Below, in pieces: positions 14,067 through 64,000 of a DNA stretch of 64,000 nucleotides. A model generated the notes under the pieces. It was not told the origin of the DNA and searched no databases. It saw only the letters and a program-made list of their open reading frames with translations. This DNA comes from an uncultured Planctomycetaceae bacterium. Its GTDB lineage: Bacteria > Planctomycetota > Planctomycetia > Isosphaerales > Isosphaeraceae. The stretch spans positions 3,680,001-3,744,000 of the forward strand of contig CAWIAD010000002.1 in the NCBI GenBank assembly GCA_963833985.1, given 5' to 3'. How positions within the stretch are numbered: position 1 is the first letter of the stretch; every line of letters begins with the position of its first letter. A program made the translations under genes and the position numbers.

Positions 14067-14135
14067 TCTCTTCATGGGACGATCTCGACCAGGGGTCGGC
14101 TAGGCGGCCGGCATACGCCCGGAGACTCGGGGCGG

Positions 14136-18654: not shown

Positions 18655-19001
18655 TGTTCTTCCTCGCTGGCTGCGGGCAAGCCATCGTGACGATTCGACG
18701 CTGATCGCCGACGGTCCGTGCCGGTCATTGAACTCGGGATGATGCCTCGAGGACATCCGCTGGATCGGACAGGCCACTGCTGCCTAGAATAGAGTATTCA
18801 CGGTCCAGGGTCACGTGTCACATGATAGGTGCACGGGCGTAAAATGTTGTCAAATCCCCGGCCGTCTTCCACGGTTCAGGATGCTGGCTTCGCGGTTGGC
18901 GTCCTGAACGTGCAAGGGCTCTGGCCTCGACACGAGGTCGATCGGTCCGCGGGCTTGCGAGCAGGTGCGGCTCCAGAGTACCGCCACCCGGGGAGACGTC
19001 C

Positions 19002-29207: not shown

Positions 29208-29350
29208 GACGGCTCCTGGATGCTTCCCCGATCGTCCACCCCATTCCACCGGCCGTGCGGGCGCCGCGTCACATTGCCGGCGGTGCCGGGAAAACACAAG
29301 GGCACCTCCCGCGGGCCCGTCGCCGCTGGGGGCCGAGTGAGCCGATGAGA

Positions 29351-46239: not shown

Positions 46240-46457
46240 TCGCCCCGGCACACCCTCCACCGTCACCTCAAGGCGCCCGTTGAATCTGGAATCGTGTGTG
46301 CGCTCCGGACGCACTTGATTTCGCTGGTTTCAGAAATTACTATAACTGAAGCACTGCCGCGAGAACCGCTCCAGCAGTGAGACCATTTGTATGAACGTGA
46401 GCGAGGTTGCCACGTCTCATCCGCGTCTTCGGGGTAAACCCAGTGAAGACCACTTCT

Positions 46458-47669
46458 ATGCTGCGCAAGGTCACCAGAGACGGTCACGGTTATTCGGTCG
46501 TTGACCTCAATGACGTGAGGCATGTGCTGGCGGTCGCGGTCCCGCGCGGGGATGGCGACCTGAAAACGCAGGCACAGGAAGCGCTGCGGACAATCGAGGC
46601 CGTGCACGATGAAGAAGACACTCTCGGCTCGATCGTGCACCAGGCGGTGTTCGTTGCCGATCCGGAGCTGATTCCGTCCTGCCGCGCAATCATCCGCGAG
46701 TTTTACGGTGAGGACCTGCCTGCGACCTCGTTCGTGATCCAGCCTCCCTGCCAGGGGAAGTTGCTGGCCATCGAGGCGATCGGCGTGGGCCGGGGCAAGG
46801 CGGACGTCCGGATCGAGCGGTTCAGCGACCAGCTCGTCCGCGTCACTCACAACGCGCTCTCGTGGGTGCACTGCGCCAACATCACGCCGCGCGCGGGCGT
46901 CAGCGGCGTGTACAACCAGACCGTCAGTGTGCTCTCGCAACTCCGCGGGATGCTGGCGAAGCTCGACGTCGGGTTCGACCACATCATCCGCACCTGGTTC
47001 TACCTGGGTGACATTGTCGGCGACGAGGGAGATACCCAGCGCTACAAAGAGCTGAACCGCGCCCGCACTGCTTTCTTTGAGGGCGTGGAGTTCCTGGCCG
47101 GCTGCCAGCCCGGCCTGCCCGAACCGCTCTCTCCCTATCCGGCGAGCACGGGCATCGGCGCGCAGGGCAGGGGCCTCATGCTCGGCTGCATCGCGCTGGC
47201 GACCAATCGCCCCGAGATCGTGGCCATGCCGCTGGAGAACCCGAACCAGACCTCGGCTTTCCACTACGCATCCTCGTACAGCCCCAAGAGCCCCAAGTTC
47301 GCCCGGGCGCTGGCCCTGTCGTGCGGCAACTACGCCACCATTTTCATCTCCGGCACGGCCAGCATCGTGTCCTCGGAATCGCGATATCGGGACGACGTTG
47401 AGGCGCAGACGCGCCAGACGCTGGACAACATCGAGCTCCTGATCTCCGAAAACAACCTGAAGCGGCATGGCCTGCCGGGGCTGGGTGCCACGTTCGAGAA
47501 CATGGGGCTGGTGCGCATCTACATCAAGCGCCAGGAGGACTACGAGAAGACCCGCGCCGTCTGCCAGGCACGGCTGGGCGACGTGCCCACCATCTATGCC
47601 GTGGCCGATGTCTGCCGTCCCGAATTGCTGGTCGAGATCGAGGGGATGGCCTTCTCCCGGCGCGGTTGA
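46458..47669 (+). CDS. FkbO/Hyg5-family chorismatase-like protein (YjgF/Rid fold)
   Basis: RTWFY, YKELNRAR, YPASTGIG, ENPNQTSAFHY...SPKFARA, FISGTASIV, ADVCRPELLVEIEG. Confidence 0.75.
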   Translation: MLRKVTRDGHGYSVVDLNDVRHVLAVAVPRGDGDLKTQAQEALRTIEAVHDEEDTLGSIVHQAVFVADPELIPSCRAIIREFYGEDLPATSFVIQPPCQGKLLAIEAIGVGRGKADVRIERFSDQLVRVTHNALSWVHCANITPRAGVSGVYNQTVSVLSQLRGMLAKLDVGFDHIIRTWFYLGDIVGDEGDTQRYKELNRARTAFFEGVEFLAGCQPGLPEPLSPYPASTGIGAQGRGLMLGCIALATNRPEIVAMPLENPNQTSAFHYASSYSPKSPKFARALALSCGNYATIFISGTASIVSSESRYRDDVEAQTRQTLDNIELLISENNLKRHGLPGLGATFENMGLVRIYIKRQEDYEKTRAVCQARLGDVPTIYAVADVCRPELLVEIEGMAFSRRG

Positions 47670-47750
47670 GCGAACCCCTCCTGGAGTATCATGGATTCCG
47701 GGGGCATGTTCGATGCTCCCCTTGTGTCGACCCCGTGGAGCGTAGGCACG

Positions 47751-50700
47751 ATGGTTCGCCTGCATGACCGTGTTTGCCCCAGACGCTTCGGGTTGCTCGC
47801 CTTCGTCATCACCGTGCTGGCAGCGGGTGGTTGCCATGGGCCCGCCCCCGAAGCACCGGTGCCCGCACCGCCGGCCGCGCCAGCGCACGACCAGGCGGGC
47901 GTGACCGGCGCGACGGCCGGGGCCCTCTCGGCCTTCAACCGCGGAGCGGCCCAGCTGGAACAGTACCAGTACGCGGCTGCCGCGAAGACGCTCGAGGGAG
48001 TCGTCGCCTCGTCTCCGGGCTGGATCGCGGCCCGGTTCAACCTGGGCCTGGCGCTCCTCAACCTGCCCGAGACGCCCGACGCCCTGGACCGCGCCGAGGC
48101 TCAGTTCCAGAGCGTGCTCGCGTCTGAGCCCGAGAGTCCGTGGGCGCACTTCTGCCTGGGCGCTCTCTACCAGCACCGCGGAGAGTATGACCGGGCCGCC
48201 GATCATCTCGCGCGGGTCCATGCGGTCGATCCCCACGACCCCTTCGTGAGCTTTGAGTACGCCGAGTCGCTGCGCAAGCTGAATCGCGACCCCGAGGCGC
48301 TGCGCATCCTGGAACAGGTCGTACAGCGTGATCCGGGGTTCGTCTCGGCACTGTACAGCCTGGGCATGCTGTACAACCGGATGCACCAGCGCGAGAAGGC
48401 GGTTGCCGTCCTGAAGCGGTTTGGCGAGCTCAAGCCCCAGGAGCTGGCGGTCGGGTCTTACGGAGTGGTGGAACCTTATGCCGGCCGGGGCAAGTATTAC
48501 ACCGCACTGGGAGCTGACGGTCTGCCGGTTCCGGCCAGTGCCGGCACAGAGGCGCCCCGCGTGCTGTTCTCGCCTGAGATCCGCACGCTCGACGCACGGC
48601 TGGCGGCATGGACCTGGCACGGCGGCAAGGTGAGCGTCCCGGGCATCGCGGTGGGCGACGTCGATGGTGACGGCGACCAGGACCTGGTGATGGCGGGCAC
48701 CGGCTCCACGGGCCAGGCGCGCGTGCTGCTCAACGACGGCAAGGCGCATTTCCAGGGCGGACCGATCCTGGCGGAGCAGACCGTCGCACCCTGCCTGGGC
48801 GACATCGACAACGACGGCGATCTCGACCTCTGGCTGGGCCGGGAGGGGCAGGACCTGCTGCTTCTGGGTGACGGCAAAGGGACCTTCACCAGGGTTCCCG
48901 CACAGCCCGCAGCCGCCGCCGAATTCCTGACCACCTGTGCGCGCCTGCTCGACCTGGATAGTGACGGCGACCTCGACCTGCTGGCGATGCGCATCAAGGG
49001 CGGGTCGCTGCCCGCAGGGAACGAGCAGGTGCCCGCGGCCAGCCGCGTTTTCAACAACAACCTCGACGGCACCTTCGCGGACCTGGCGGCCAGCCATGGT
49101 CTGGCGCTGACTGGCCAGGCAATCTCGGCTGTCGTCCAAGACGACTTTGACAACGACCGCGACATCGACATGATCCTGCTTTCGCCCGCTGGCCGGCCAC
49201 TGGGATGGGAAAACTTCCGGATGGGCCAGTACCGCGTGCGGGACGCTCAGGAGACACAGCTTGAGATTGACCATCCCGTGGCAGCGACCACCGGGAACCT
49301 GTTCGGCACCGGCAACCGCGATCTGCTCGTCTTCGCCGGCAAGGAGCTGGCCCTGTTCCGGAATCGGGGCCTGTGGCGATTCGAGCGCGACGAGAGCTTC
49401 TCGGCAAGTCACGGGTCGCTGGGCGGGACGAGCGGTCAGTTCGTCGATATCGACAACGACGGCGACCTCGATCTGGTCATCGCCGATGCGCACCGCAGCG
49501 ACGGGACGCGCGGGCCAGCGCTCTTGCTCAATGACTGGCCAAACCGGCGGTTTCTCGATGCGGCCCGCGTCGATCCGGGGAACCTGCTCACGCAATGGAA
49601 GTGCGCTGGCCCCGCGCTGGTCGTGGCCGCCGATTTCGACGGCGATGGTAGACCGGACCTGCTCTTCGCGGCCATGGGCCAGGCGCTGTGGTCCTGCTCA
49701 ACGCCACGCGGGGGGGGAACTGGCTGGCACTCGATCTGGTCGGCCAGCGCGGGCAGGACCAGACCAGCCGTTCGCCGACCTCGGCCCTGGGCGCAAGGGT
49801 CGAGTTCCGTGCGGGACACGTCACGCAACAGCTCGTCGTGGGCACGCCATCGGGTGCCACCGCGCTGCCGCCCCTCCGCCTTCTGGCCGGGCTCGGGCCG
49901 CATCGCTCGGTGGACTGGCTGCGGATCCAGTGGCCCGATTCGCTCCTCCAGGCCGAGCTCGAGGTGGCGGGCAACCAGGTGCTGACGCTGCCGGAGGTGT
50001 GCCGCCGGACCAGCTCCTGCCCGCACCTCTTTGCCTGGGACGGCCACGGCTACGCATTCGTGTCCGACTTCGGCGGGGTCGGCGGGCTGGGTTACCGGAC
50101 AGGCCCGTCCTCCTTCGCTCGCCCCGATCCCACCGAGTACGTCACCCTGCCCGGGCTCGCGGTGCGCGACGGCGATTACGTCCTCCAGGTCGTCGAGCCG
50201 CTCGAGGAGGTCGTGTATCTCGACGAGTTGAAGCTGATTGCCGTGGATCATCCCCGGGGCACGCAAGTTCAACCCCGCGAGATGGCCGCCGTCGCAGCCG
50301 ATCCGCCGCTGTTCGAGCTTTACTGCTTCAGCCAGGTCGTCGCGCCGGTCCGCGCGGTGAACGACTGCGGTCAGGATGTCACGGCCGCGCTGGAGAAAAC
50401 CGATCGCGTCTACGCCAGCCCCGCGCTGCGCGACAGCCGCTTCACCGGGTTTGCCCGCGAGCATTTCGTGGAGCTGGATTTCGGGGATCGCCTGGGTGGG
50501 TTACCTCCGTGCGTGCACCCCGTGCTCTTGCTGGACGGCTGGGTTGAATATAGCACGTCCACGTCCAACTTTGCCGCGAGCCAGGCAGGGTTGCGGCTGA
50601 AGGCGCCGAGCGTCCAGGTCCTGCGTGGCGGCCGATGGGTCGAGCTGCGCACGAGGTCGGCTACCCCGCGGGGATTCGCCATACCATGACCATCGACCTT

Positions 50701-51272
50701 GCCGGCAAGCTCCGGCCTGGCGACGTCAAGCTGCGGATCACCAGCAACATGGATTTGTCGTGGGACCGGATCACCGTGGCGGCTCATCGCCCCGAGGCGG
50801 CCCCGAGACTGACTCAAGCACCCGCGCGCACGGCGGAGCTGCATTTCCTGGGCTATCCCCGCGAGTACTCGCCCGATGGGCGGCAGCCCAACCTGCTGGA
50901 TCATTCCAACGTCGATCCCTCCGACACATGGAGGCGCATGCCGGTGCCTACACCCGTTACGGCCAGGTCCGGCCCCTGCTGGAGTCCGCCGATGATCGAT
51001 TCGCGATCCTGGGCGCCGGCGACGAGGTCACGCTTTGCTTCCCGCAGAGCGCATTCGGTCCCATCCCGCCGGGCTGCACGCGTAGCTTCCTGCTCAAGAC
51101 CGATAGCTTCTGCAAGGACATGGATCTGTACACGGGCGGATCGGCAAGCGTGGACCCGCTGCCCTTCCATGCCATGAGCACTTACCCTTATGGTCCTGCC
51201 GAGCGGTACCCGGAGAGCGCGGAGTTTGTGCGCTATCGCCGGGAATACAACACGCGGATCATCGCCCCTTGA
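47751..51272 (+). CDS. Lipoprotein: TPR - FG-GAP repeats - ASPIC/UnbV - C-terminal domain (frameshifts near 49685, 50650, 50940)
   Basis: Lipobox VLAAGGC; TPRs; many DxDxDGDxD repeats; NWLALDLVG..ALGARVE..GLG..IQWPD; SSCPHLFAWDG; FCKDMDLYT..VDPLPFHAMSTYPY..YRREYNTR. Confidence 0.85.
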
Positions 51273-52488
51273 TGGAGCACGGCGAAAGGGCCGGTTCGGC
51301 CTGGACTGTCCGCCCGGATCGAATGGTGCCGAGCACCACGCGACGACTGTTGCTTCCCAGGCTGTCCCAGGCGATGACTCCGGTGACACCCTCGTAGGGG
51401 CTGACCAGGCGCAGGGCGTCGCCGATTCTGGAACGGTTCAACCCGGCCTTGCGGATCGCCGCGATGAGCAGCTTGACCGCATCGTACGTGTGTGCCGCGG
51501 CATAATCAGGCAGCGCGTGGTACCGCGTTTCGAAAGCAAGGCGGAACGAAGGCGGCAAGGCGTCTGGGTTGCACAATAACGGGAAGAGCACGCCGTCGGC
51601 GGCAGGGCCGGCCGTGGCCGCGAATCGCCTCCGGCCCATGGCGTGAGTGCCCAGGATCAATCCGGAAAAACCGGCCGTGCGCAGTTCCCGGACCAGCAGG
51701 CCCGATGTTTCCGCCCCGGCCACGAGTACCACCGCGGTCAGGCTTTCCGCCAGGACGGTGCGTACCGTCGCGCTCATGCCGGCCCTTTCCGGCGGCAAAA
51801 CGTGCACGAATGACGGAGCGGAATGCCGGCGTTTCAGTTCTCGATCAAGCTCGGTGACGAACCGCCTGGAATCATGATCGGGGGCTGACACAAAACCATA
51901 CTTTCGATCGTTGCAGCGCTCCAGCAGAACCGTCGCCAGCACCGGTGCCTGGAGGTGGTCGCCCGGAAGCACAGAGAACATCCAGGGAACATTCGCGACG
52001 TTCGCGCTGCGGTCGCTACTGGCAGGGCAGACCAGCGGCAGCCGCGCCTTGGCGACAACCTGCTCGGCCAGGTGCGCCGAGGGGCCGTCGCTGCCGCCCA
52101 CGACCGCCCACACGCGATCGCGGTACGCCATCCGGGCGATGAGACCGGCTCCGGTTTTCCAGGGCTCGGCGCTCCATGCGGCGCGGAATCGGAATGGTTT
52201 ACCGTGGTAGCCGCCCTGGGCGTTGGCCTCATCCACGGCCAGCACCGCGGCCTTCCAGAGATCGCCGCTCTCGGGGTCATCCGGATTGTTCGTGCCGAAA
52301 TAACCGAGCAGCACCTCTGACACGTCGGCAGTCGTCTCGCGCTCGCGCCCGGGTCCGGCGTAGGGCTGGGCCTGGAGCCGGAAGTCGCGAAACGGCTGGA
52401 CCGGCGAAGCCCGTGGAGCAAGCGACGTCTGAGCCTGTGCGGTGGCCGCGGACGCCAGAACAGCCAGGGTGAGCAACGGCCAGCGCAT
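51259..52488 (-). CDS. LivK/LivJ-like (periplasmic binding protein type 1) substrate-binding protein
   Basis: Signal peptide; LAVDEANAQGGY.G.PF, VWAVVG, NVPWMF, PDYAAAHTYDAV.LLI.AIRKAG, YEGVTGVI.WD. Confidence 0.85.
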   Translation of the reverse strand: MRWPLLTLAVLASAATAQAQTSLAPRASPVQPFRDFRLQAQPYAGPGRERETTADVSEVLLGYFGTNNPDDPESGDLWKAAVLAVDEANAQGGYHGKPFRFRAAWSAEPWKTGAGLIARMAYRDRVWAVVGGSDGPSAHLAEQVVAKARLPLVCPASSDRSANVANVPWMFSVLPGDHLQAPVLATVLLERCNDRKYGFVSAPDHDSRRFVTELDRELKRRHSAPSFVHVLPPERAGMSATVRTVLAESLTAVVLVAGAETSGLLVRELRTAGFSGLILGTHAMGRRRFAATAGPAADGVLFPLLCNPDALPPSFRLAFETRYHALPDYAAAHTYDAVKLLIAAIRKAGLNRSRIGDALRLVSPYEGVTGVIAWDSLGSNSRRVVLGTIRSGRTVQAEPALSPCSIKGR

Positions 52489-52500
52489 GCGGTTTTTGCC

Positions 52501-53945
52501 TCACTCCCTGGCGCCTGGGGCCGCGGACCTGGAGATCCCCATTTGCTCACGCGAAAGGTACTTCCAGCGGGCCTGCTCGCGCCGGGCCAGGAACACCTCG
52601 CCCACATCGTCGAGCACGGGGCTGAAGCGGATCTCGCCGGTCACTCCTTGCCATGGCTCCCTGCGGTAAGCGATCAGGTCGCGCACCTTCGCCCGGTTGA
52701 GGCCGGCCTGCTGGATGGCCCAGATCAGCATGTTCATGCCGTCATAAGCATGTGCGGCGTACGTTTCGGGCTCCTCATGGAACCGGCGCGGAAGCGGTTG
52801 CGGAATTCCAGGTACATCGGCGCGGTCCGCGTCGGGTCCCACGGGTAGGCGCACACGACGCCTTCGGCATTCGCGCCGGCGATCCGAACGAACTCGTCGG
52901 AGACGCAACGGTCGCACGCCACGAACGGCTGGCTCATTCCCGCTGCCCGCATCTGGTTGAGGATCCTGGCGCCGTCGGCGGCGTCGCCCCAGTGGATGAC
53001 CACGTCCAGGTTCGCGGCCCTGAGCCGCTCCAGCTCGAGGCTGAAGTCCTCTGCGCCGATCTTGTACGCCATCTCGATCTGGATGGGACGCTCGAGCCGC
53101 CGGCTGGCATCGCTGATCTCGCGCACGCCGAATCGCCCGTAACGATTGCTCGCCCGGATGATGCCCGCGCGGCGGTACCCGGCCTTGCGGTAGAGGTAGT
53201 CGACCAGGATGTAATTCATCTGGCGGTCGTCGCCGATGCAGCGGGCGACCCACGGAATATTGGTCTCGATGAACGTCGGGTCGGTGTCGCCGGTGTTCAT
53301 GATCAGGACCTCGCACTTGAGCGCGACCCGGATCGCGATGTGGCTGTTGGCGCCGTCGATGGTGCCGAGGATCGCCCAGACCTTGTCCTTGTAAACCTGC
53401 TTGATGATCTCGTTGGCGGATGAGCCCCAGAGTCCGTTGTCGTTGGAGACAACCAGCTCGAAGGGAAGCTTGCGCTTCCGATAGCCGCCCTGTGCATTGG
53501 CCTCCTCGATCGCCAGCTGGCTCCCCTGGTACATCCTTCTGCCCAGCACTTCCTCATGGCTCTTGCCGCCGGTGGCCGCCGACACGGTCGGGTAGAGCGG
53601 CCCCAGGAAGCCGATCTTCACCGTGGACACAGAGACGGGCTCGGGCACGGCCCGGCCTGCCCCGGTCGCTTCAAGCTGGGTCAGGAAATGGGTCCTGAAC
53701 GGCTCCACGTGGTGAAACGGCTCGAGCTCCTTGACCGTGTGCGCGTACTGCTGCTCGGTCTTCAGGGGAAGACGCGGAACCTGGTAGGCGTTCAGCGCGT
53801 TGATCTCCTCGAGGATCGCCCTGGCATCGGCGTCAACGGCCGGTCCCGTCTCCGGAGGCTTCCCCGGCGGAGAGGAACCCTGCCCGAACGCGGGCGGGAT
53901 CAGCGCAACAAAGATCGACACACAAACAACTCGAATGTATTTCAT
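52501..53945 (-). CDS. Second LivK-like substrate-binding protein (frameshift near 52785)
   Basis: MKYIRVVCVSIFVALIPPAFG signal; VKIGFLGP, LAIEEANAQGGY, VWAILGTIDG, NIPW; continues EEPETYAAHAYDGM..GVTGEIRFS. Confidence 0.85.
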
Positions 53946-53983
53946 ATTATTGACATTTCTTTTTAAAAAGACATGAGATGCTT

Positions 53984-55180
53984 CTAGTGATTGCCAGCAC
54001 GCCGGACTCCGGGGTAGTATCCGTCGCCCTTGCCCCATCCCAGCCCCCTGGCGGTGGCCACCCAGACGTCGTTGCCGTCGAAATCAAGATTGATCACGTA
54101 ATTGTGCGGCACGGTACGCTCGAGCTCGATGGTCTTGATTGGCTTTCCCCGGCGAAAGACCTTTGCCTCGCCGCGCAGAGTCTGGGGGTTCCGGGTGTAG
54201 GCGACATAGGTGTCGGAGAAGAAGTCGGCGACGACGCCCATCCCCTTGTCGGTGGCGAACCAACCTTCCGCCGAGCTGCGCCCCCGCACCGCGTTGGTGA
54301 AGTCGCTGGGGATGCCCGTCTCATTGGCATAGAACCCCCGCCAGTTGCGGCCGTCGTAGCGGCAGTTGCCGAAATACGTGGAGACCCAGAGCGCATCACC
54401 CACATGGCTGGCTCCGGTGACGATCACGTGGACAATACCGTCATCGCGGTACAGGTCGATCTCCATCTCGCCGTCGGGATCGATGTACTCCTTCCAGTGC
54501 GCGGTCTTCAGGTCGTACTCCAGGCAGCCGCTTCCCCACACGCCCAGGTAGACCTTCCCCTGGTCGACGCTCACTGAATAGTTCCAGATCTCCTCCATGG
54601 GGGCGTTCTTCTCGTTGAAGATCGCCCACTCGCGCGCCTTGGTGTTGTAGCGGCTGCACCCGGCGGTGGTTGCCGCCCAGACATTGTCGCCCTCCACGGC
54701 CACGCCGTAGACGACGTCGTTGACCAGCCCGCTGTTGAGCTGATGGAAATGGTCGAAACGCCCGCCACTGAACCGCGCCAGACCGCCGCCGAACAGCCCC
54801 AGCCAGACATCTCCGGTGTTGCGGTCCACGTCGATCGCGGTCACGGCCTGAAACGGCAGGCCGTCCTTCTCTTTCCAGCTCCGGATCTTGCCCGTTCGCT
54901 TGTCATAGCAGGCCAGACCGTCCTCGGTGCCGATCCACACTCTGGGCCCGTCCGCCTTGACGGCGAAGATGTGGTCGTTCGGCAGGCCGTCGGCCACCGT
55001 GAAGTGCTTCCACTGCGTGTACACGAAGGGCAGGGCGTCATCGGGCACATCCGCGCGCTGGCCGGCTGCCAGCAGCGGCGCCGGAGTGGGGGGTCTGGGC
55101 TCATCGCCGCCCAGCAAGCAGGGCAGCAGCGCACCCAGCAGGGCCGGTGCGAAGCCGGCGTTGGTTCGGGCTCTCTTCAT
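53984..55180 (-). CDS. Secreted beta-propeller with two-component-regulator propeller (Reg_prop-like) repeats
   Basis: FTVADGLPNDHIFAV..VWIGTEDGL, KDGLPFQAVTAI..VWLG..GGL, NSGLVNDVVYGV; no kinase or TM module. Confidence 0.8.
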   Translation of the reverse strand: MKRARTNAGFAPALLGALLPCLLGGDEPRPPTPAPLLAAGQRADVPDDALPFVYTQWKHFTVADGLPNDHIFAVKADGPRVWIGTEDGLACYDKRTGKIRSWKEKDGLPFQAVTAIDVDRNTGDVWLGLFGGGLARFSGGRFDHFHQLNSGLVNDVVYGVAVEGDNVWAATTAGCSRYNTKAREWAIFNEKNAPMEEIWNYSVSVDQGKVYLGVWGSGCLEYDLKTAHWKEYIDPDGEMEIDLYRDDGIVHVIVTGASHVGDALWVSTYFGNCRYDGRNWRGFYANETGIPSDFTNAVRGRSSAEGWFATDKGMGVVADFFSDTYVAYTRNPQTLRGEAKVFRRGKPIKTIELERTVPHNYVINLDFDGNDVWVATARGLGWGKGDGYYPGVRRAGNH

Positions 55181-55213
55181 ACCTGTCCCTCGATCACTAT
55201 CTTGAAACTTGCA

Positions 55214-58139
55214 TCAGAGCGTTTTGAGGTACTCGATCAGATCGTTGAGCTGGTCCTTGGTCATGTCGTTGGTGACGCCGTGCCGGTCGTCGGGGTTGTA
55301 CCGCGTCCAGATTTCCTCGAGAGTCTCGGCAATGCCGTTGTGGAGGTAGGGGGCCGAGTCGTAGATGTTGTTCAGGTGCGGCACGTCCACCCGGTCCTCG
55401 ACGTCCAGCGTCATGCGCGTGCCGACGTCGTGCTTTTCGCGGTCAGTATAAAGCGGTGGAAAATGGCACGAGGCGCACCGTTTCAGCTTGGGTATCGGCC
55501 GGCCGTCGGCCGTGACGGCCCGGTCGAAGAGCTGCTTGCCCCGGCGCTGGGCGGCTGTCAGCTCCACGCCCGGCGCGATGGCGGTTCGGCGGCCGGGCGA
55601 TGGTGCTGATGTAATGATCCACGGCCGCGAGCTCATCCGGAGTGAAGGGCTGGATGCGTGTGAAGTAGACCGACAGCCGTGGTCCGCACTGCCGTGACAG
55701 CGTGGGGTTGGTGCCAGCCCACTTGAAAGGGCCGGTGTCGAGAATGCCGCGCAGCGTGCGGTTGTCCACGGGGGCCAGCCCAATGCCGTCGGCCTCGATG
55801 TCGTAGGTCAATCCGTCCACGTGACCATCGGGGTGGCACGTATGGCAGGAGAGCTGGCGATGGAAGGAGATGCCGGCATTGTGGAAGAGCCGCTCGCCGC
55901 GCCGTGCCTCGGTGACGACCCGCGGACCGCCCAGGTGCACCGTACCGGCCGCTTTCCTGCCGGGGATGTCGATCACCGTCAACGCGTCGTCCAGGGCGCA
56001 GGCAACCCACGCCGTCTTGCCGTCGGGAGCAATCGCCAGGCCGCGCGGGTTGCGGCCCGTGGGGACCAGCGCCGTGACGAACCGCGTCGCCTGACCCAGA
56101 TGGTTGGGCAGCACGTCCCGGCGCTCGTCCTCGGTCGCGCCCTGGACCAGTCCGGTAAGCTGTGCGAGGTCGACGATGGCGACCTGGTCGGACCCGGCGC
56201 TGGTGACCAGGGCCAGGGCCCCATCGGGCGTGACGGCCACGTCGGTCGGATCCGGAAACGATTCTCCGGCCTGGTCCAGCAGCACCTGGTCCACCCGGCC
56301 GTCCTCCCAGACCAGGCCCAGGCCGCTGGTGACCGTCCAGCCCTGGAGCATCCGGGTCATCGGCACGAGGTTCTTGGTACGCAGCAGCGTGGCCAGCGCG
56401 AACCGGCCCGAGGGATGCCAGGCCACCCCCTGGAGCATGTTGGCATCGGGCACCACGAGCCGATCGTCGATCGTCGCGCGGCCGCTGTCGATGATGCTGA
56501 TCTCGGACTGCGACGACTCCCGAAACTTGACGAACCGCGACAGGGCGTTCGTGACCAGAATCCGGGCGCCGTCCGGCGAGATCGCCAGGGCCCAGGGGCT
56601 GCGGCTGGCGGAGAGGCGCTTCCGCTCCCGCAGCGAGGCGGCGTCGAACACCGAGATGTCGTCCGAGGAGGTGTTCAGCACGTAGATCGTCTTGCCGTCA
56701 CGGTCAGTGCACACCCCGTGCGGCTCATCGCCGACCGGCACGGTGGCGACCACGCGCGCCGCGGACGCGTCCACCACCGACAGGGTGTCATCCAGGCGGT
56801 TCGTGACGTAGGCCCTCTGGCCGTCGGGGCTGAACGCCAGGCCGGTCGGTTGACCCCCGACGACGATCTCCGCGCGCTTGCGGCGCTGCGCCGCGTCCAG
56901 GACGCAGACCGTCGCGGACGCCTCGCAGGCGACCCAGATCTCCTTGCCCCCCGGCCGGAACGCCACGTTGATGGGAGTCTTGTACACGACCCGCTCGGCC
57001 AGCGCCGGCGCTCCTGCCGGGTGGGCGATCAGCGGCATGGCCGCCTTGACATCGAACGGCTTGCCATGCGCCTGGCCATGGCAAGAGAGGCAGGCCGTTT
57101 CCCGGACCGCGACCATCCGCTCGGCGGCCACGGCCCCCTGCGTCCTGGCCGCCCGCTCGGTCGCGTGCGAGCTGCCAGGCCCATGGCACGACTCGCAGCC
57201 CACGCCTTCCAGGATCGAGTAGCTGTCGGCCGTTCCGGCCGCGGCCCGATGAAAGGCCGTGCTGTGGCATTTCAGGCAGGCCGCGCTGCGCTGGGGGTCG
57301 GCCGTGACGCCCGTCTGAACAGCCATCCGGGCGGCTTCCGGAGTGCCAAGCGAGGCGTAGGCACGAGCATGCGGCGTGATCTGCCAGCGGCTGAACGCAA
57401 AGCCCTTCTCGGCGGAATCATGGCACTCGGCACAGGCGCTCGAGCCGATGTAGCGGGCCTTTGCGTGGTTGTCGACCGGAGGGATCACGGCAGGCTCGCT
57501 GGTCTTTCGCTGCCCGTTCCCGGGTGTGGGATGAGCCAGTTCATGAAGCGCACGGGCAAGGTCAAACGGAACCGCCGGCGTCGCCGGGTGGGCCGCCGGC
57601 CGCGCCGGCGCCGCGGAGGCGCGGGCCAGCGACCTCGTGTGCGAGGGCTTCTCCTTGTGGCACTTCATGCAGTCGGCCCCGCTGGGGCTGGTCATGTGAA
57701 CCGGCGATTCGGCTCTCAGCGCGCCGCCAGCCGTCCAGGATTCGGCATGCTCGCTTCCCGGACCGTGGCATTTCTCGCACTGCACGCCGTTGCGGATGGA
57801 GAAGGTCTCGTCCTTTTCCCAGTTTTCGGCGTCGGCGGCCGTGGCATGGCAGCCGAGGCAGAGGGGCGACTTCTGCGGCTCGACGGGCACTCCGCTGATC
57901 GCGGCGATGGCATGCGCCTGCGGCGCGGCCAGGCTGGCGTACGCCCGCGCGTGCCGCGAGTGCTGCCAGATGGTCGTCTGGTGCCCCATCCCCGCGCCGT
58001 CGTGACAGGTCGCGCACACGCCGGCACCTACGTACACCGGACGCCGCGGCTGGGCCTGAGACGGCGAGCCCGCTAGGATCAGGATGGCGCCGAGCACCAG
58101 GCCGGAACGAGGCAACCGGGGTTCGCACGCCGCACTCAT
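55214..58139 (-). CDS. Fused octaheme cytochrome c - YVTN beta-propeller (HzsB-like) - diheme CCP-fold (HzsC-like) protein (frameshift near 55575)
   Basis: Eight CxxCH (CATCH, CLGCH, CEKCH, CMKCH, CAECH, CLKCH, CESCH, CLSCH), YVTNRLDDTLSVVD repeats, then CHTCH and CASCH with KHDVGT, YLHNG.A.TLEE, DRHGVT..QLNDLIEYLKTL. Confidence 0.88.
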
Positions 58140-58155
58140 GGCTTGATCACTCCGT

Positions 58156-59901
58156 TCAGCGGGCAGGTTGAACGATGCGCAGGAACTGGTTCGCCGCCAC
58201 GTCCTTGAGCGCAGTGGTCGTGCCGTCCGGCCAGCGCACCTCGACCTTGTCGGCCCTGACCGCCTTCCCCAGGCCGAAGTGCAGCCGTGCGTCCCCCTGT
58301 GAGAGATAGCCGCGCACCGGAATCAGGTCGTCCACCTGCACGAGCGATCCCGCCGTGACGACGACGCGAGCGCCGATGGCGTCGGTCCTGCCGTTGGCAA
58401 GCCGGGCCGACACGGTGAGCCAGTGGCCCTGGGTATTGCCGCCGTCGTTGCGCAACAGACGCGGCGAGTCGTTGAGGTTCACGACCAGCAGGTCGACGTC
58501 GCCGTCGTTATCGAAATCTCCCCAGGTGGCGCCCCGGCCGACGAACTTCTGGGAAAAGTAGGGCCCGGACCTTCTGGCCACGTCGACGAAATGGCCCTTG
58601 CCGTCATTGTGGGCCATCACCGCCCCCTCGCCGTACTCGTGGTGGGCGTCGCCGTTGGCGATGAACAGGTCGAGGTCGCCGTCGTTGTCGAAGTCCTGAA
58701 GCACCGCGCCCCAGCCGGTGTACTGGCCACAGATGAGCGCCAGCCCGGAGGCGTTGGTCTGGTCCTCGAAGAACTCGCCGCGGTTCGTGTGCAGGCATCC
58801 GTAACCCATGTCGGGAATGTAGAGGTCAAGCCGGCCGTCGCGGTTGATATCGCCGAAGACCGGCCCCATCGAGGAGACGCCCTGGCCACCCTCGCCAAAC
58901 GCCAGCCCGTAAACCAGTGCGTCGCTGGCGAACTTGCCATGACCCAGGTTGCGGTAGAACGCGCTCTCCATTGCGTCGTTGGCCACGTAGACGTCGAGCC
59001 GGCCCGTGTTCAGAAAGTCGGCCGCGGTGGCGCTCATGGCGCGGCCGTCCTTGCTGAAGACGCCGGCATCGCGGCTCACCTCGCGGAACGTGCCGTCGCC
59101 ATTGTTGCGCATCAGGTGGTCCGGCTGGCCGGGATAGCTCAAGGGCCCGGGATAGCCGGCGGCCGCGTAGTAGTTGCGGAACTTGCCGCCATCATATTTC
59201 AGGTACGTCGCCACGAACACGTCGAGCCTGCCGTCGCCGTCGTGGTCGAACCAGACTCCCGAGACGCTCCAGCCGGGCAGGTCCAGGCCCGACTGCTTCG
59301 AGACGTCCGTGAAGGTGCCGTTGCCGTTGTTGTGGTAGAGCACGTTCGGCCCGTAGTTCAACACATAGAGGTCGACATGACCGTCACCGTCGTAGTCGGC
59401 CGCCGAGCAGGCCACGCCGTAGCTTTCGCCTCCGCCCACGCCGGCCCGGTCGGTCACGTCGGTGAACGTGCCGTCATGGTTGTTGCGGTACAGGCGGTTG
59501 CTCAACTTCCCCCGGAGCCGACGGCCCGTGTTGTCGTTCACGTCGCTGCGATAGCGCCCGGAGAGCAGATAAAGATCCAGCCAGCCGTCGCCGTCGTAGT
59601 CGAAGAACATCGCACCGGCGCCGGTGCCCTCGACGATGTTGCTCAGCTCGGCATCACCGAAGCTGTGCTTGAAATGGATCCCGGCCTGCTCGGTGACGTC
59701 GGTGAATACCGGAACCGGCGGATCGTCGGCCAGCGCCGGCCGTGATCCCAGGACCGCCATCAGAAAGAGCAAAGGCAGGAGCATCCGTCCGCCACAATGA
59801 GCGAATTGCCATCCATCCGCTGTGTGGCTGCGGTGAAACGTGGCGCAGGCCCACGCGCTGCGGACCCGGGATTGTTGCTTGGCGTTCATTGGCGTGCTCA
59901 T
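58156..59901 (-). CDS. CRTAC1-family protein (FG-GAP repeats + ASPIC/UnbV)
   Basis: FTDVTEQAGI.F.H, multiple DYDGDG/DFDNDGD repeats, HWL.V..DAIGARV..GYLSQ.D.RLHFGLG..VEVRWPDG; start overlaps the upstream stop (ATGA). Confidence 0.92.
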   Translation of the reverse strand: MSTPMNAKQQSRVRSAWACATFHRSHTADGWQFAHCGGRMLLPLLFLMAVLGSRPALADDPPVPVFTDVTEQAGIHFKHSFGDAELSNIVEGTGAGAMFFDYDGDGWLDLYLLSGRYRSDVNDNTGRRLRGKLSNRLYRNNHDGTFTDVTDRAGVGGGESYGVACSAADYDGDGHVDLYVLNYGPNVLYHNNGNGTFTDVSKQSGLDLPGWSVSGVWFDHDGDGRLDVFVATYLKYDGGKFRNYYAAAGYPGPLSYPGQPDHLMRNNGDGTFREVSRDAGVFSKDGRAMSATAADFLNTGRLDVYVANDAMESAFYRNLGHGKFASDALVYGLAFGEGGQGVSSMGPVFGDINRDGRLDLYIPDMGYGCLHTNRGEFFEDQTNASGLALICGQYTGWGAVLQDFDNDGDLDLFIANGDAHHEYGEGAVMAHNDGKGHFVDVARRSGPYFSQKFVGRGATWGDFDNDGDVDLLVVNLNDSPRLLRNDGGNTQGHWLTVSARLANGRTDAIGARVVVTAGSLVQVDDLIPVRGYLSQGDARLHFGLGKAVRADKVEVRWPDGTTTALKDVAANQFLRIVQPAR

Positions 59902-61977
59902 GGCCCTCTGGCTGCCCTGGAGTCTTCGTACGGCCCGGCGGTCCGGCGTGCTCCGAGGTCGATCCAGCGCACGATGGTCCGCATTTCGGCGGCAGTAAGC
60001 GGCGCGCTCCTGCCCGCGGGGATCGGCCGGGCGGCCGTCGACCCGGCTGCACCGTCCCAGGGCCGGGACGTGTTCCGCCCCAGCAGATGCCAGACCAGAG
60101 GGCTGGTCCGCGCACGCCCGGGGTGGACGTACTTTCCCAGCCCGGAGGAGGGATCCGCGGCTGCATCGGGCGCGAGCAGGGCACGGTAGAGGTGATCAGG
60201 CGCGGCAGCCCGGTCCCCTTCCGCCGCGGCTGGAGGTGCCAGGTCAATCCCTGCCGCGGCCGAACCGCCCTGATGACAGGGCAGGCACCTGGTGCGAAGG
60301 ATGGGAACGACGTCGCGCGCAAAGTCCGTGAACCCCTCACCCTGGACGCCGATCGCCGTGGCCGCCGGCGCGTTCAGCGCGTCTGGTACCCGGTTGGGAG
60401 GAGTGCGCTCGGGGTCCTCGTGGCAGCCAATGCAGCCCTGTGCCTGGTGATTCCGCGCCCAGATCCAGCCGCAGCTCCGTACCGCGATGCCCTGCTCGTC
60501 GAGCAGTTGAAGCTGGATCGGCCGGCTTGCCGGTACGACCACCTGGAACGACCCGTCGCTCTGGATGGGCAGCTCGGTCAGGATCCGCCGCGCGGAGAGC
60601 TGGGGAAGCGGTCCCGATCCGTTTGTCGTGCAGGCGGCGCCGAGTCCGCTCGAGCCCTCAGGCGCCGGCAGTCCCTCAACCACGCGGAGAGTCTTCATCA
60701 TTCCGTGGGTTCGCCACATGCGGTCCGGCAGATCGCTCGTGAAGACGCTCATGCAGTAGAACCTGGCCAGCCGATCCGCGGGGTCGACCACGCTCGAGCG
60801 GCCATCGGGGCGCGGCCGGCTGAAGACGGCGCGGGGCTTGAGCTCGTGGAAGCGGGGATCATCGAGAATCAGCGCCCGCTGGCCGGTCGCCGGATCGAAG
60901 CGGTACAGGCCGAACGACGAGCCCGCGTCTCCGGAACGCCAGGCCACGACCAGCTGGCCGTCGGGAAACGCCGAGGGAGAGGAATACAGCCCGTCATGCG
61001 GCCCGGTGATCGTCCGGTACGTGTGCAGGGGACTGCGCAGCGACGCCCCCGCCAGCCGCCCCGCGCCGTCGCGGGCCGCAGGGTCAGCCTCGACCACGAC
61101 GAGGTTGCCGTCGGTGGTGATGCACGGCATCCGCCGCAGTCTCCCCGGGCTCCGCGGGACGAGGATGGCCCGATCCGATCCATCGGTGTTGACCGCCTCG
61201 AGGGCCAGCCGTCCGGCCACGCCGAGGTCGAGCGTCGCTCGATGCCACGACGCGTAAGCTATCCGCCCATCGGGCATGATCGCCGGGTCAAGGTCGCTCG
61301 AGAGATTGTAGGTGATGCGCTCTGGCAGCGAACCGCTGAGCTTGCAGGTGTACAGGCTGGTAACCGGGCCCCCGTCGCGCTCGTCGAGCTGGCCGCCTTG
61401 CGTCTTCACGAAGGCGATCTGCTCCCACGGCTCCGGCTGGCTGATCGTGAAGAAGCTCGACGTGTAAATGGGCGACTGGCAACGGCCGACATTGCGGGTG
61501 ACCTGCCGCTCCTTCAAGCTTTGCAGGTCCATCTCGTACACATCCCAGGCGTCTCCGGGCCGCTTCTGGCCCGCGAACAGGATCCGCCGTCCATCCGGGG
61601 AAACGTCCGCGTCGGTCGCGCTGTGGAACGACGGCGTGAGGACCCGCGTCGATCCGTCAGGGGCGAGCAAGACCAGCCGCGCGGGCGGATCCGGGCTGGA
61701 CACCGAGCCGGCGGACTGCGGCCAGTTCGGCTCTGGAGTCACCGGGACCTGCGTGAAGACCAGCGCGGGCCGGGCGGGCGAGTGGCGGCCGGCGGCCGCG
61801 GGGGGCTGAGCAGCGGCCCATTCAGTTCCGCAAAGCGCTGCCAGGCAAGCGAGGACCGCCCGGATGGAACGCCTGGCGCCGCGGGACCGGGCGCGGCACA
61901 CCGGGCCGACCTCCGGGAACGGCAGTGGCCGTGCCCCGGGGCCGGAGAACGCGTGGATGGCGGTAAGCTCCCTCATG
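59898..61977 (-). CDS. Hydrazine synthase alpha subunit (HzsA)-like diheme protein
   Basis: Propeller RVLTPSFHSA.D.DVSPDG..ILFAG, GRCQSPIY, RITYNLSSDLDP..MPDGRI, GLYSSP..PDG; middle domain LRVVEG..SDGSF..PA..PIQLQLLDEQG..W..GCIGCHE; C-terminal DFARDVVPIL..CLPCH, PGRAR.S.LVW, WIDLGA. Start uncertain. Confidence 0.85.
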
Positions 61978-62309
61978 GACGTTGAAACCATTACAGGGAT
62001 CGGCGACGGCTTCCGCGGCGCCGGCGGTCTTGGTGGCTGGCAACCATCGGCGCAGCCCAAACCCGTACTAGCGAAGCTTCATTGCTGCCTGGCCCGAGCC
62101 GGACATGCGCGGGCGGGCTTCACCGGGTCCGCCCTCGGGCACGGTCCGGGAGGCGCGGCACGATCGATTGATCTCCGCGGCTTCAGTCGGCGCTGCGGAG
62201 ATCAGCAGGGATCGTCTCGCGATCGCTTTATCCTACGACGCAACCGTCGAGAAATCGAGGGCCCACCCACCGTGAAGCAGGCAGTTCCTCTCCCGTGCTA
62301 CGGGCCCTT

Positions 62310-64000
62310 TCACTTCGCCCCGTCCGGATGCTCCAGCGCGCGATGCTCCCAGGCCAGGGCCGTGGCGCTGGGGAACCCCGCGTAGATCCGGCCGTCGGGT
62401 CCGATGGCGAGGGCCGTGACCCGTTCGCCCGGGCTCGCAATCTTGCCCTCGAGCTGCCAGCTTGCGGTGTCGCGGAGCTCGATGGACCCTTCAGGGGCCG
62501 CAAGGACCGCGGTCCTGCCGTCGGCGGAAAACGCCAGCACCTCGGGCACACTCCATTTCGGCCGGGACGGCGTGTTCACCTCGTTGCCGGTAGCCAGGTC
62601 CCAGAGTTTCACGATTTCGTTCTCAGACAAGCCGGGGGGACGCGCGAAGCCGAGGGAACTCCCGTGCGAGACGACCGCCAGGCGCTTGCCATCCGGCGAC
62701 AGGCGAGCCCGAAAAACCTGTGATCCCGCCTCGCCGGCCGCCGGGAATGACCGCACGACCTGGCCGCTGGCCACGTCCCAGAGCCGGACGGCGGCGTTCA
62801 AGCCGAAATACTGGACCGTCACGAGTGACTTTCCGCCATCGATGAAGAAGACGGCGCCGGCGTCGCCTTCAAAGCCGGCGAACCGGTTGATGGGTGCACC
62901 GCTGGCCAGGTCGATCATGCGCAGCCTGCAACCCGCGAGGGTGGCGTTCGGCTGCGCGGGGTCCTTGTACTGGACCGTCTCGTCGGCCGCGGGCCAGACG
63001 AGATAGCGTCCATCCGGACTGAGGGCAAACCCGCGCTGCGCAGACACGTTCACACGGCGAAGGTGCTCGCCCGTGCGAGCGTTCCAGACGTGTGCGTCGC
63101 CGTCTTCGCCACGGGTAACGATGTGCTGGCCGTTGGGCGTCACGGCAATCTGGGCGACGGGGCTTTCGCCTCCCTCCGGAATCAGCACCTGGCCAGTGGC
63201 CGCATCCCAGCGATCGATCGTGCCGGCGACTGCTGCCACCAGCGTCCTGCCGTCCGCCGCGTAGCGGAGGCCGATCGCACCACGGTCGATCTTCAGGCGT
63301 TCCTGGCCGGTCGACGTGTCAAAGAGCCGAGACGTCGAGCTGCCCGAGGCCGCGAGCGTGCGGCCATCCGGTGAGAAGGCAAGCGATCGGACGCGCAGCG
63401 GGTCGGGAAAGTCGATGCTCAGCCGCTCCCGGCCGCTGGCGGTGTCGAAGAGCTTGATCGCCAGCGTGTCCCTCGCACGGTCGCCGCCGATGGCGATCGT
63501 CGCGCCGTCGGGCGCGTAGGCGACGCAGCGAATGCCGGCCTGGCCGTAGGGCAGCCGGCGCACCTCGCGGCCTGTATCCACCTCCCAGATGCGGGCGAAG
63601 TAGACATCGTTCTCGCTGTCGTACCCGCCGGCTACGAGTTCCTTTCCATCGGGCGAGAAGGCGGCCGCGAAGACGACGTTCGCGTGCCGGTACGTGCGTA
63701 CCACCTTGCCCTGGGCAAGGCTGATCAGGTCCAGGGCGGGGCCCTCGGCGGACGTCATCGCGAGCTGCGTTCCGTCGGGTGAAAAGACGAGGAGGTCGGT
63801 GATGATGGTGCTGCTGGGGTAGGGGTACACGACCTGAGCGGTCTGCTCGCCGCTCGTGGCGCTGTAGGCTGTCACGGTGTGTCGGAACGCGTCCCTGGCC
63901 GCGATCGTCTTGCCGTCTGGCGAGAGCGCGACGGCCTCGATGAGCACGCCAGGGTCAAAGGTCCGCAGCGCATCGCCCGTGGCAAGATCATAGAGGCGGA
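62310..64000 (-). CDS. WD40-repeat protein (5' end outside the window)
   Basis: Repeated FSPDG..LA..WDV/WDL motifs; the ORF runs to the window edge. Confidence 0.88.
   Translation of the reverse strand, partial: RLYDLATGDALRTFDPGVLIEAVALSPDGKTIAARDAFRHTVTAYSATSGEQTAQVVYPYPSSTIITDLLVFSPDGTQLAMTSAEGPALDLISLAQGKVVRTYRHANVVFAAAFSPDGKELVAGGYDSENDVYFARIWEVDTGREVRRLPYGQAGIRCVAYAPDGATIAIGGDRARDTLAIKLFDTASGRERLSIDFPDPLRVRSLAFSPDGRTLAASGSSTSRLFDTSTGQERLKIDRGAIGLRYAADGRTLVAAVAGTIDRWDAATGQVLIPEGGESPVAQIAVTPNGQHIVTRGEDGDAHVWNARTGEHLRRVNVSAQRGFALSPDGRYLVWPAADETVQYKDPAQPNATLAGCRLRMIDLASGAPINRFAGFEGDAGAVFFIDGGKSLVTVQYFGLNAAVRLWDVASGQVVRSFPAAGEAGSQVFRARLSPDGKRLAVVSHGSSLGFARPPGLSENEIVKLWDLATGNEVNTPSRPKWSVPEVLAFSADGRTAVLAAPEGSIELRDTASWQLEGKIASPGERVTALAIGPDGRIYAGFPSATALAWEHRALEHPDGAK

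Follow-up and report, generated by a model that had tools for sequence, protein, structure and literature searches.

A conserved six-gene cluster for hydrazine synthase-like multihaem proteins in a non-anammox planctomycete

Gene content and reading frames of the cluster

This work concerns a gene cluster in a 64,000-nucleotide stretch of DNA, here called the window, from an uncultured Planctomycetaceae bacterium (GenBank assembly GCA_963833985.1, contig CAWIAD010000002.1, positions 3,680,001 to 3,744,000 of the forward strand). Six open reading frames (ORFs) on the minus strand fill positions 51259-62060 of the window. Two of the encoded proteins are related to the hydrazine synthase (HZS) of anammox bacteria; the other four are accessory proteins, among them two substrate-binding proteins (SBP1 and SBP2). 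An earlier note on this DNA, made from the letters alone, had described six co-oriented genes, and all are present. It had also placed the host among high-GC, non-anammox Isosphaeraceae. The genome data agree: the host genome has 10.16 Mb in two contigs, a GC content of 65% and a completeness score of 96%, and belongs to the same genus as genomes with proteins named Aquisphaera. The genes of the cluster are as follows.

59898-62060, minus strand: HzsA-like alpha subunit, 720 amino acids as the longest ORF; Pfam HZS_alpha.
58156-59901, minus strand: FG-GAP/UnbV_ASPIC (CRTAC1-family) propeller protein; Pfam FG-GAP_3 and UnbV_ASPIC.
55443-58139, minus strand: octahaem-propeller-dihaem fusion (beta-gamma) ORF, true frame 55576-58139; Cytochrome_C554 twice and a YVTN-type propeller.
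55214-55575, minus strand: continuation of the beta-gamma fusion in a second frame; second half of the HzsC-like domain.
53984-55180, minus strand: Reg_prop beta-propeller protein, putatively exported, 398 amino acids; Pfam Reg_prop.
52734-54038, minus strand: LivK-type binding protein 1 (SBP1) ORF, true frame from 52787; Peripla_BP_6.
52501-52786, minus strand: continuation of SBP1 in another frame, with the sequence EEPETYAAHAYDG.
51259-52488, minus strand: LivK-type binding protein 2 (SBP2), 409 amino acids; Peripla_BP_6.

The genes are tightly packed. The start of the FG-GAP gene overlaps the alpha stop codon (ATGA), as had been claimed. The further claim of gaps under 40 bp holds once the split frames are joined and SBP1 is started at its likely internal start (MKYIR, near position 53945), and not otherwise. 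The likely start of alpha lies inside the 720-amino-acid ORF, and its signal-like stretch ends near residue 95. Judged by eye, the N-termini of all six proteins consist of basic residues followed by a hydrophobic stretch. Hence, all six are putatively exported, in line with the earlier reading. Scans of positions 50500-62500 for promoters and terminators were at chance level, with one promoter-like site (1.0 expected) and six terminator-like sites (5.6 expected).

The assembly breaks the frame of two genes, a point passed over by the earlier note, which spoke of joined proteins. The octahaem-propeller-dihaem fusion that it described exists only when its two frames are joined. The fusion ORF leaves frame near 55576/55575, after STIARPPNRHRA, and resumes in the other frame with PGVELTAAQRRGK, followed by CASCH, HDVGT and DLIEYLKTL. 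When aligned to intact orthologues the frames join at PPNRHRA / PGVELT, and a DNA alignment shows the window to be 2 bases short of four congeners between 55576 and 55575. SBP1 leaves frame near 52787/52786, after EFRNRFRA, and continues to 52501. Here, the window is one base short of four relatives in a run of C residues (GCCCGG has become GCCGG). Both breaks therefore sit at short C/G runs. Both proteins are encoded in a single frame in two congeners (G004 and G013) and in a genome of another family in the same class (G031). The frames downstream of the breaks keep 78-84% identity to relatives. Both frameshift sites also read CGCGCCGG, as a common methylation or error motif might; the post hoc chance of such an 8-mer match is estimated at about 7%.

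We measured how often frames break elsewhere in the host genome. From twenty 20-kb stretches of G004, 144 long ORFs with a high GC content at third codon positions (GC3) were searched against the host genome. Matches were found for 115. Orthologues were taken to be those with a best segment of 50% identity or more and a chain covering 70% or more of the query, which left 68. Of these 68, 19 change frame in the host genome between collinear segments; example junctions are at C2:5603994, C1:252658 and C2:1002877. The 125.6 kb compared contain 20 frame breaks, a mean spacing of about 6.3 kb. At this rate, the 10.8-kb cluster should have 1.7 breaks, and it has two. Two congeners with few-contig assemblies, G002 and G010, also break within the cluster, at other places. 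The assembly's frameshifts will thus break gene calls genome-wide, and the few-contig congener assemblies will likewise be unreliable for gene calls.

Because relatives are in frame, the indels fall in C/G runs and breaks are frequent throughout the genome, the two frameshifts are most likely assembly indel errors. The operon would therefore be intact in the living cell. Conceivably, the frameshifts are instead real mutations, and the operon a decaying, non-functional relic in this strain: two of its six genes and the convergent FG-GAP gene beside it are out of frame as given. We consider this very unlikely. Breaks at one per 6.3 kb are too many for a free-living bacterium with a 96% complete genome, the number in the cluster is close to that expected, and the positions of the breaks, the identity kept downstream and the different break points in G002 and G010 all speak against decay. 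Programmed frameshifting was rejected as an explanation, given the one-frame fusion and SBP1 genes of G004, G013 and G031 and the 53 intact fusion ORFs of further loci.

Relationship to hydrazine synthase

The alpha protein has three domains: a propeller, a middle domain that Pfam assigns to HZS_alpha (71 bits; cut-off 26.6), and a haem domain at the C-terminus, whose CXXCH motifs are at residues 543 and 592. In a search of all PDB sequences the only match was HZS alpha of Kuenenia stuttgartiensis (5c2v_A, E 4.9e-45), aligned in four stretches that cover query residues 100-706 and chain residues 32-767. An AlphaFold2 model had a predicted template modelling (TM) score of 0.72 and was unreliable in the N-terminal 94 residues and in the haem-motif loop. 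The top Foldseek match of the model was again 5c2v_A (E 2e-36, TM 0.65/0.62, 763 columns), and the second was TolB, at a TM score of 0.32.

The first frame of the beta-gamma fusion encodes a putative signal, two modules like cytochrome c554 with eight CXXCH motifs between them, an HzsB-like propeller of seven blades and the initial half of an HzsC-like domain, which holds the ninth CXXCH (CHTCH). The second frame (55214-55575, about 120 residues) adds the tenth CXXCH (CASCH), together with HDVGT and DLIEYLKTL. The haem motifs thus number 8+1+1 over both frames, and alpha contributes two more. Intact fusion orthologues are single ORFs of 976-987 amino acids and carry 10 CXXCH in 53/53 cases. 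Pfam Cytochrome_C554 matches the fusion as two tandem modules (109 bits), one of which also matches 1bvb (E 4.1e-09). The propeller aligns with nearly the whole HZS beta chain (5c2v_B, residues 14-347 of 352, E 8.3e-37). A slightly higher score, built from repeated local matches to the propeller, goes to a YVTN surface-layer protein of Methanosarcina. HZS gamma (5c2v_C) is the best PDB match for both halves of the C-terminal domain, at E 0.0024 and 1e-09. For the second half the next match is a di-haem peroxidase, at E 0.05. The CCP_MauG family (PF03150) reaches 17.8 bits against a gathering cut-off of 25.6 on the first frame only, the domain being split by the frameshift.

The cluster proteins thus have the overall fold and domain order of HZS alpha, beta and gamma, with gamma in two pieces. 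The relationship proposed by the earlier note stands, since the only or best solved relatives are the 5c2v chains and HzsA is the top fold. The matches are not only to generic YVTN or CCP (cytochrome c peroxidase) proteins. Hence, the affinity to HZS is specific. The motifs that the note cited fared unevenly when compared with reference HZS. Clear counterparts were found for ITYNLSSDLDP (ITYNLSSNFDP in the reference), GRCQSPIY (GTCRSPIY), HDVGT (identical) and DLIEYLKTL (DLVEYLKAL). Conversely, TKNLVP and PGRARTSPLVW correspond only partially to PKNWLP and PSAAINSLLVW.

The window cluster resembles the anammox enzyme of K. stuttgartiensis (PDB 5C2V/5C2W) in its co-located genes, its three-domain alpha with two c-type haem motifs, its seven-bladed beta propeller with a blade-6 loop and its CCP-fold dihaem gamma with a third cysteine link. 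A fused beta-gamma protein is also found in Scalindua (NCBIfam NF052342). The cluster differs from the anammox system in having the alpha gene first, eight extra haems and four extra conserved genes, in lacking the hydrazine-site residues, gamma-Asp168 and a hydrazine dehydrogenase (HDH) partner, and in belonging to a host of heterotroph lineage.

To compare individual residues, we aligned the window proteins and their orthologues to the hzsB-hzsC-hzsA locus of a reference genome (L032 in G169). Its alpha and gamma residue numbers agree with the published Kuenenia numbering; in beta, its ORF numbers differ by about 1 from that of the Glu253 named in PMC12758564. Residue roles were taken from section 8 of that paper and from PMC12607021. 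In the anammox enzyme, Tyr591 is the proximal ligand of haem alpha-I, zinc is bound by His587 and Cys303, and His772 is the distal ligand of the bis-His haem alpha-II. The beta-loop Glu binds Mg, and in gamma Cys165 provides a third covalent link to haem gamma-I, which has Asp168 on its distal side. In alpha of the window, the CXXCH histidine, His587, is kept, and the stretch bearing Ser590 and Tyr591 is a gap (CIGCHEDPER) in the window and in 69/69 orthologues. In the same set, the position of Cys303 is never occupied by cysteine and the column of His772 is a gap. The mean column identity of alpha is 51%, and its invariant residues gather round the haem motifs (GC[IV]GCHED). The second haem motif of alpha is CXXCH in 53/69 orthologues and CX3CH in the remaining 16/69. 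This variant (e.g. CATAACH) is found mostly in acidobacterial loci (L077, L083, L086, L088, L110, L114, L116, L124, L129-L132, L134 and L137-L139). In beta, the blade-6 loop is present (TKNLVPMTRMLQGW), and the two columns of loop glutamates hold Arg in 50/53 and Leu in 39/53 orthologues. In gamma, Cys165 is kept in the window and in 53/53 orthologues, Asp168 is replaced by Leu in 53/53 and His144 by Trp in 53/53.

The phylogeny is consistent with this separation. In a tree of 77 alpha rows, two true HzsA proteins form one clade (support 100) and the homologues another (99). The window alpha groups with that of G002 and then with those of G004 and G013 (support 100). This was a quick FastTree analysis with SH-like support only, and it does not reproduce the clade labels of PMC12758564.

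Scores against equivalog models point the same way. The NCBIfam HZS equivalogs (NF052339/40/41, and NF052342 for the fusion) are the best models for the window proteins, and all match far below their cut-offs: 179/800 bits for alpha, 143/560 for beta, 49/625 for gamma and 121/1250 for the BC fusion. True HzsA scores 1518-1606 bits and occurs in 17/401 sampled Planctomycetota, whereas the host genome reaches 75 bits. HDH was not found in the host genome, where the best match to NF052343 scores 61 bits against a cut-off of 900. A search of the host genome for NirK gave no match above cut-off; NirS, Nor and Nos were not searched for. As the earlier note had stated, the window holds neither HDH nor hydroxylamine oxidoreductase (HAO). 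The sole HAO-family octahaem gene of the host (L056, G000:C2:3872180-3876034; gene at 1291-2616, plus strand) has 88 bits to PF13447 and 64 bits to the HDH model (cut-off 900), and its best PDB match is an Ignicoccus multihaem protein that is not an HDH (4qo5, E 1e-36). This gene was rejected as a partner of the cluster because it lies about 130 kb away.

Because the hydrazine-forming residues are lost, the equivalog scores are low and HDH is missing, the enzyme likely does not make hydrazine. The opposite case would be a genuine, divergent hydrazine synthase, and with it a cryptic anammox-type capability outside Brocadiia. For related genes such a role has been entertained: PMC11828985 proposed anammox potential for 'HzsA' in ten phyla. 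Three co-located subunit homologues with an HZS-like fold, the gamma-Cys165 link and the one HAO-family gene in the genome would fit. Against this, the tyrosine ligand, zinc site and distal histidine of alpha, the beta Glu and gamma-Asp168 are all missing, and equivalog scores are 4- to 13-fold under cut-off. Neither HDH nor a NirK above cut-off was found in the genome, whose HAO-like gene is distant and most like a non-HDH multihaem protein. PMC12758564 likewise reaches a negative conclusion. We hold a genuine hydrazine synthase to be extremely unlikely.

The host carries a second, far more divergent HZS-like pair (L019, G000:C1:1672000-1691000; ORFs at 13562-15544, 15430-17535 and 17899-18987, all minus strand). 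Here, a beta-gamma-like gene (CCP_MauG) comes before an alpha-like gene (HZS_alpha), and an arylsulfotransferase-like propeller gene precedes both. The pair lacks an octahaem domain, FG-GAP genes and binding-protein genes, and probably corresponds to 'clade IV' as outlined in PMC12758564. Pfam HZS_alpha (PF18582) also scored above cut-off in Bacteroides thetaiotaomicron, used as a control genome. The domain alone therefore marks neither anammox nor an HZS-like complex.

Conserved gene order, accessory proteins and neighbouring genes

The same six-gene order was found in four genomes of the same genus (G002, G004, G010 and G013) and in G031. Between these genomes and the window, identity is 38-60% for alpha and 65-86% for the FG-GAP protein, the propeller and SBP1. 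Strong alpha matches occurred in 5 of the 13 other genomes searched within the genus (completeness 65-100%). Beyond the genus, a pattern scan of one genome per species returned at least 599 stretches, of which at least 566 encode a relative. The best 80 of these relatives come from Thermoguttaceae, Pirellulales, Phycisphaerae/Sedimentisphaerales, Bryobacteraceae, Solibacteraceae, Vicinamibacteria and one Anaerolineales bin. The hosts of the clusters are Planctomycetota and Acidobacteriota of soil, peat and sediment.

Gene order was counted stage by stage, using only loci with enough sequence to judge each stage. Alpha was directly followed by the FG-GAP gene in 66/66 loci, and the octahaem part came next in 60/60. 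The order extended to the propeller-gamma part in 55/56 loci, to Reg_prop in 49/50, to SBP1 in 46/47 and to SBP2 in 39/44. The single locus L102 accounts for a miss at the third and every later stage; the loci L062, L063, L065 and L071 lack SBP2. L102 (Phycisphaerales bin164 chromosome, from 13516-14043) is the only long locus that stops inside the octahaem part despite 7 kb more sequence, and may be a rearrangement or a decayed copy. Because the order is kept in dozens of genomes, the cluster is a real conserved unit far beyond chance. The synteny survey that the earlier note had proposed thus finds the six-gene set kept together across loci of Planctomycetota, Acidobacteriota and Chloroflexota.

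The FG-GAP protein is the most conserved member of the cluster, with a mean column identity of 70%. It matches FG-GAP_3 (172 bits) and UnbV_ASPIC (83.5 bits), and its only PDB relative is CRTAC1 (9etn). Its model has a mean predicted local distance difference test (pLDDT) score of 92.6 and superposes on CRTAC1 with a TM score of 0.79. Next come lectins and integrins, at TM scores of 0.5 or less, and no enzyme is among the matches. The Reg_prop protein, 67-86% identical in relatives, matches the ligand-sensing propeller of BT4663, a Bacteroides hybrid two-component sensor (PDB 4a2l, E 9.5e-31). SBP1 matches Peripla_BP_6 (89 bits) and LivJ (PDB 1z15, E 1.3e-15); SBP2 matches the same family (109 bits) and PDB 3hut (E 4.9e-18). 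By these matches, both are distant relatives of Leu/Ile/Val-binding proteins. Clustering of the flanks of the loci revealed no conserved transporter genes beside the SBP genes, and no conserved outer-membrane porin or Mtr-type partner nearby. The four accessory proteins are presumably binding or scaffold parts, because none has a catalytic fold.

Two genes lie on the opposite strand downstream of the cluster.

47691-50689, plus strand: convergent TPR, FG-GAP and UnbV_ASPIC gene (Pfam), split into 47691-49985 and 49688-50689.
46407-47669, plus strand: tandem FkbO_N and RidA (Ribonuc_L-PSP) protein (Pfam), with no obvious signal.

The convergent gene is thus divided over two frames in the same manner as the fusion and SBP1. 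A convergent FG-GAP gene follows SBP2 in 15/38 loci and is syntenic in G002, G004 and G031. In other loci an FkbO_N/RidA gene is co-oriented with alpha and about 200 nucleotides upstream of it, in 25/51 loci by clustering and 21/55 by tblastn. In Aquisphaera this gene instead precedes the convergent TPR/FG-GAP gene. A carbon-nitrogen hydrolase lies downstream of the cluster in 8 loci. The WD40 gene directly upstream in the window (62310-63998) was rejected as a member of the cluster because it had no match above 60 bits in the loci of five relatives.

Other features of the window were recorded in passing. Positions 1-10000 have a GC content of 54-56%, against 64-70% in the remainder, and contain a 1089-amino-acid WD40 protein (5355-8624, minus strand) and a short GH5-like ORF (9240-9842, minus strand). 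This segment may be foreign DNA. Positions 22089-31597 hold four consecutive minus-strand ORFs of 909, 467, 1108 and 748 amino acids, with high GC3 and no Pfam match at E 1e-5. Opposite the RidA-like and TPR/FG-GAP genes, the minus strand has a 1110-amino-acid ORF (46263-49595), also without a Pfam match. The domains sit on the plus-strand frames, and this ORF is only a shadow of these genes, one of the spurious long ORFs that high-GC DNA yields.

Predicted function of the complex

Clusters of this type have been described before. Hence, the novelty implied by the earlier note is not borne out. In December 2025, Hagglund et al. (Genome Biol Evol, PMC12758564) published the cluster as 'clade I' of the HZS homologues, and the window cluster is of this type. 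The hosts named in the text of the paper include Aquisphaera giovannonii, Thermogutta terrifontis, Novipirellula artificiosorum, Syntrophobacter fumaroxidans, Paludibaculum fermentans and Opitutus terrae. Its text describes an upstream alpha gene, a CRTAC1-annotated FG-GAP gene in between, a fused beta-gamma gene whose two c554 domains add eight haem motifs, and two substrate-binding-protein genes downstream. The residue losses that it reports are also the same, as are the retained gamma-Cys165 and the Trp at gamma-144. Its verdict is that the proteins cannot make hydrazine, and it offers no function in the passages we consulted. The gene order, eight extra haems, alpha haem motifs and residue pattern were rechecked here and agree with this account. 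The window cluster is the same in kind and represents another Aquisphaera genome, with alpha and the fusion 51-66% identical to those of G004. The main text of PMC12758564, searched by term, mentions neither a two-component-type propeller nor RidA nor Asp168. Our additions are small: Reg_prop as a fixed member, the FkbO/RidA-like gene as a frequent neighbour and the replacement of gamma-Asp168 by Leu in all 53 orthologues.

Two further reports, as far as their consulted text goes, concern similar genes. Dalcin Martins et al. (2023, PMC10732223) described hzsA-like and fused hzsBC-like genes in metagenome-assembled genomes (MAGs) of Phycisphaerae UBA1845, and raised the idea of a wider HZS-like family whose members act on other substrates. 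A 'previously undescribed HzsA' was reported in cold-seep MAGs (Nat Commun, February 2025, PMC11828985). In both cases, as here, a divergent HzsA-like gene lies beside a fused BC-like gene outside Brocadiia, and bit scores against Kuenenia are about 90-160. These papers weigh an anammox role, whereas the residue pattern in the window argues against one.

The earlier note had suggested an uncharacterised, exported redox enzyme on an HZS scaffold, and this reading is supported. Its suggestion that the two binding proteins, distant LIV-binding-protein relatives with no transporter genes beside them, capture a nitrogen substrate is purely conjectural. Our preferred interpretation, to which we assign a rough probability of 0.5, is that the exported alpha and 10-haem beta-gamma proteins form an HZS-like 12-haem complex that likely makes no hydrazine and reduces a small oxidant at the HzsC-like haem. 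Homology and synteny suggest that alpha and beta-gamma assemble into one complex. Electrons would pass down the fused cytochrome c554-like octahaem wire to the dihaem gamma part. There, the first haem, with its HZS-type triple covalent attachment kept, is the likely catalytic site. The first haem of alpha would be an ordinary His-ligated haem, and the comproportionation step of HZS would therefore be lost. The oxidant might be a nitrogen oxide (NO or hydroxylamine) or peroxide. The CRTAC1-like protein, the Reg_prop protein and the two orphan LivK-type proteins may serve as binding or scaffold parts. The c554-like wire, the triple-linked gamma haem and the loss of the alpha site thus favour a multi-electron reductase. 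Cytochrome c554 of Nitrosomonas europaea (CycA, PDB 1bvb/1ft5) has the same two tandem Cytochrome_C554 modules, but is a free electron carrier of HAO, whereas here the modules form the N-terminal domain of a larger enzyme.

Several observations weigh against a reductase of this kind. The alpha model is moderate, with a mean pLDDT of 70 and values below 50 in the haem region. In PMC12607021 (JBC 2025), the text we consulted places Asp168 4 Å from the gamma-I iron and proposes that it supplies protons for hydroxylamine formation; its loss argues against HZS-like conversion of NO to hydroxylamine. Trp at gamma-144 points to chemistry of the CCP/MauG type, possibly oxidative. Two binding proteins without a transporter are not accounted for by a simple reductase model.

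These last points bear on a different possibility, in which the gamma-type dihaem part activates peroxide or O2 and oxidises a substrate, as in CCP and MauG. Such an enzyme would act on an amine or amino acid that the LivK-type proteins deliver, or else on a residue within a partner protein. The octahaem part would act as an electron sink or buffer, and the chemistry could extend to N-N or C-N reactions of organic amines. The gamma part shares its fold, two CXXCH motifs, the inter-haem Trp and a PYxHxG motif with the dihaem CCP/MauG/MbnH proteins (PF03150), and has weak CCP_MauG, MbnH and MauG family matches. The main text of PMC12758564 identifies the residue at gamma-144 as the inter-haem residue of CCP and MauG. 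The loss of gamma-Asp168 and the fixed presence of two amino-acid/amide-type binding proteins also fit, and the FkbO/RidA-like and carbon-nitrogen hydrolase genes hint at imine, amide or ammonia chemistry. However, these neighbours are facultative, and neither a target protein nor a partner bearing a cofactor is apparent. The gamma part is nearer to HzsC than to the di-haem peroxidases, keeps the HZS-specific third Cys link and is fused to a propeller and an octahaem domain. In the alignment its second haem has an HzsC-like His, a presumed ligand, where CCP has Met. An oxidative enzyme is thus unlikely. A chance smaller still attaches to a periplasmic or surface electron conduit, in which the 12 haems would serve an insoluble or polymeric partner, such as humics, metal oxide or glycan-bound species. 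The propeller, CRTAC1-like and binding proteins would hold this partner, and no nitrogen chemistry on small molecules would be involved. The octahaem part does have weak likeness to MtrC/MtrF domains and decahaem families, four of the six proteins have binding-type folds, and the hosts live in soil, peat and sediment. Conversely, alpha and gamma are still built like an enzyme with a buried active site, invariant residues lie at the haem motifs, and the flanks hold no conserved porin or Mtr-type partner. We regard a conduit as improbable.

There is also a more far-reaching proposal. The six-gene module could be an unrecognised periplasmic nitrogen-transforming system, which either reduces NO or hydroxylamine all the way to ammonium, drawing electrons from its octahaem wire, or couples a haem-bound N-oxide intermediate to amines delivered by the two orphan SBPs. 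This is speculative and, in our view, quite unlikely. If true, the nitrogen-transforming module would add a new branch to the nitrogen cycle, and its amine-coupling variant would mean N-N or C-N bond formation outside anammox.

We take A. giovannonii to be an aerobic heterotroph. The discussion section of PMC12758564 counts it among obligate anaerobes. At least several hundred species of Planctomycetota and Acidobacteriota have the module, and cultured aerobic heterotrophs are among them. Hydrazine synthase was for a long time regarded as exclusive to anammox bacteria. Distant relatives now prove widespread, with at least 566 loci among species-representative genomes. In metagenome surveys such relatives have been over-read as 'anammox potential', and PF18582 matches should not be read in this way. 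The window adds a member in a genus with cultured strains and confirms that the hydrazine-forming residues are absent. The question posed is what a strictly conserved, predicted 12-haem complex and its four binding-type partners do in heterotrophs of soil and freshwater. The cluster is not a new discovery, but a worthwhile target for enzymology in a culturable genus.

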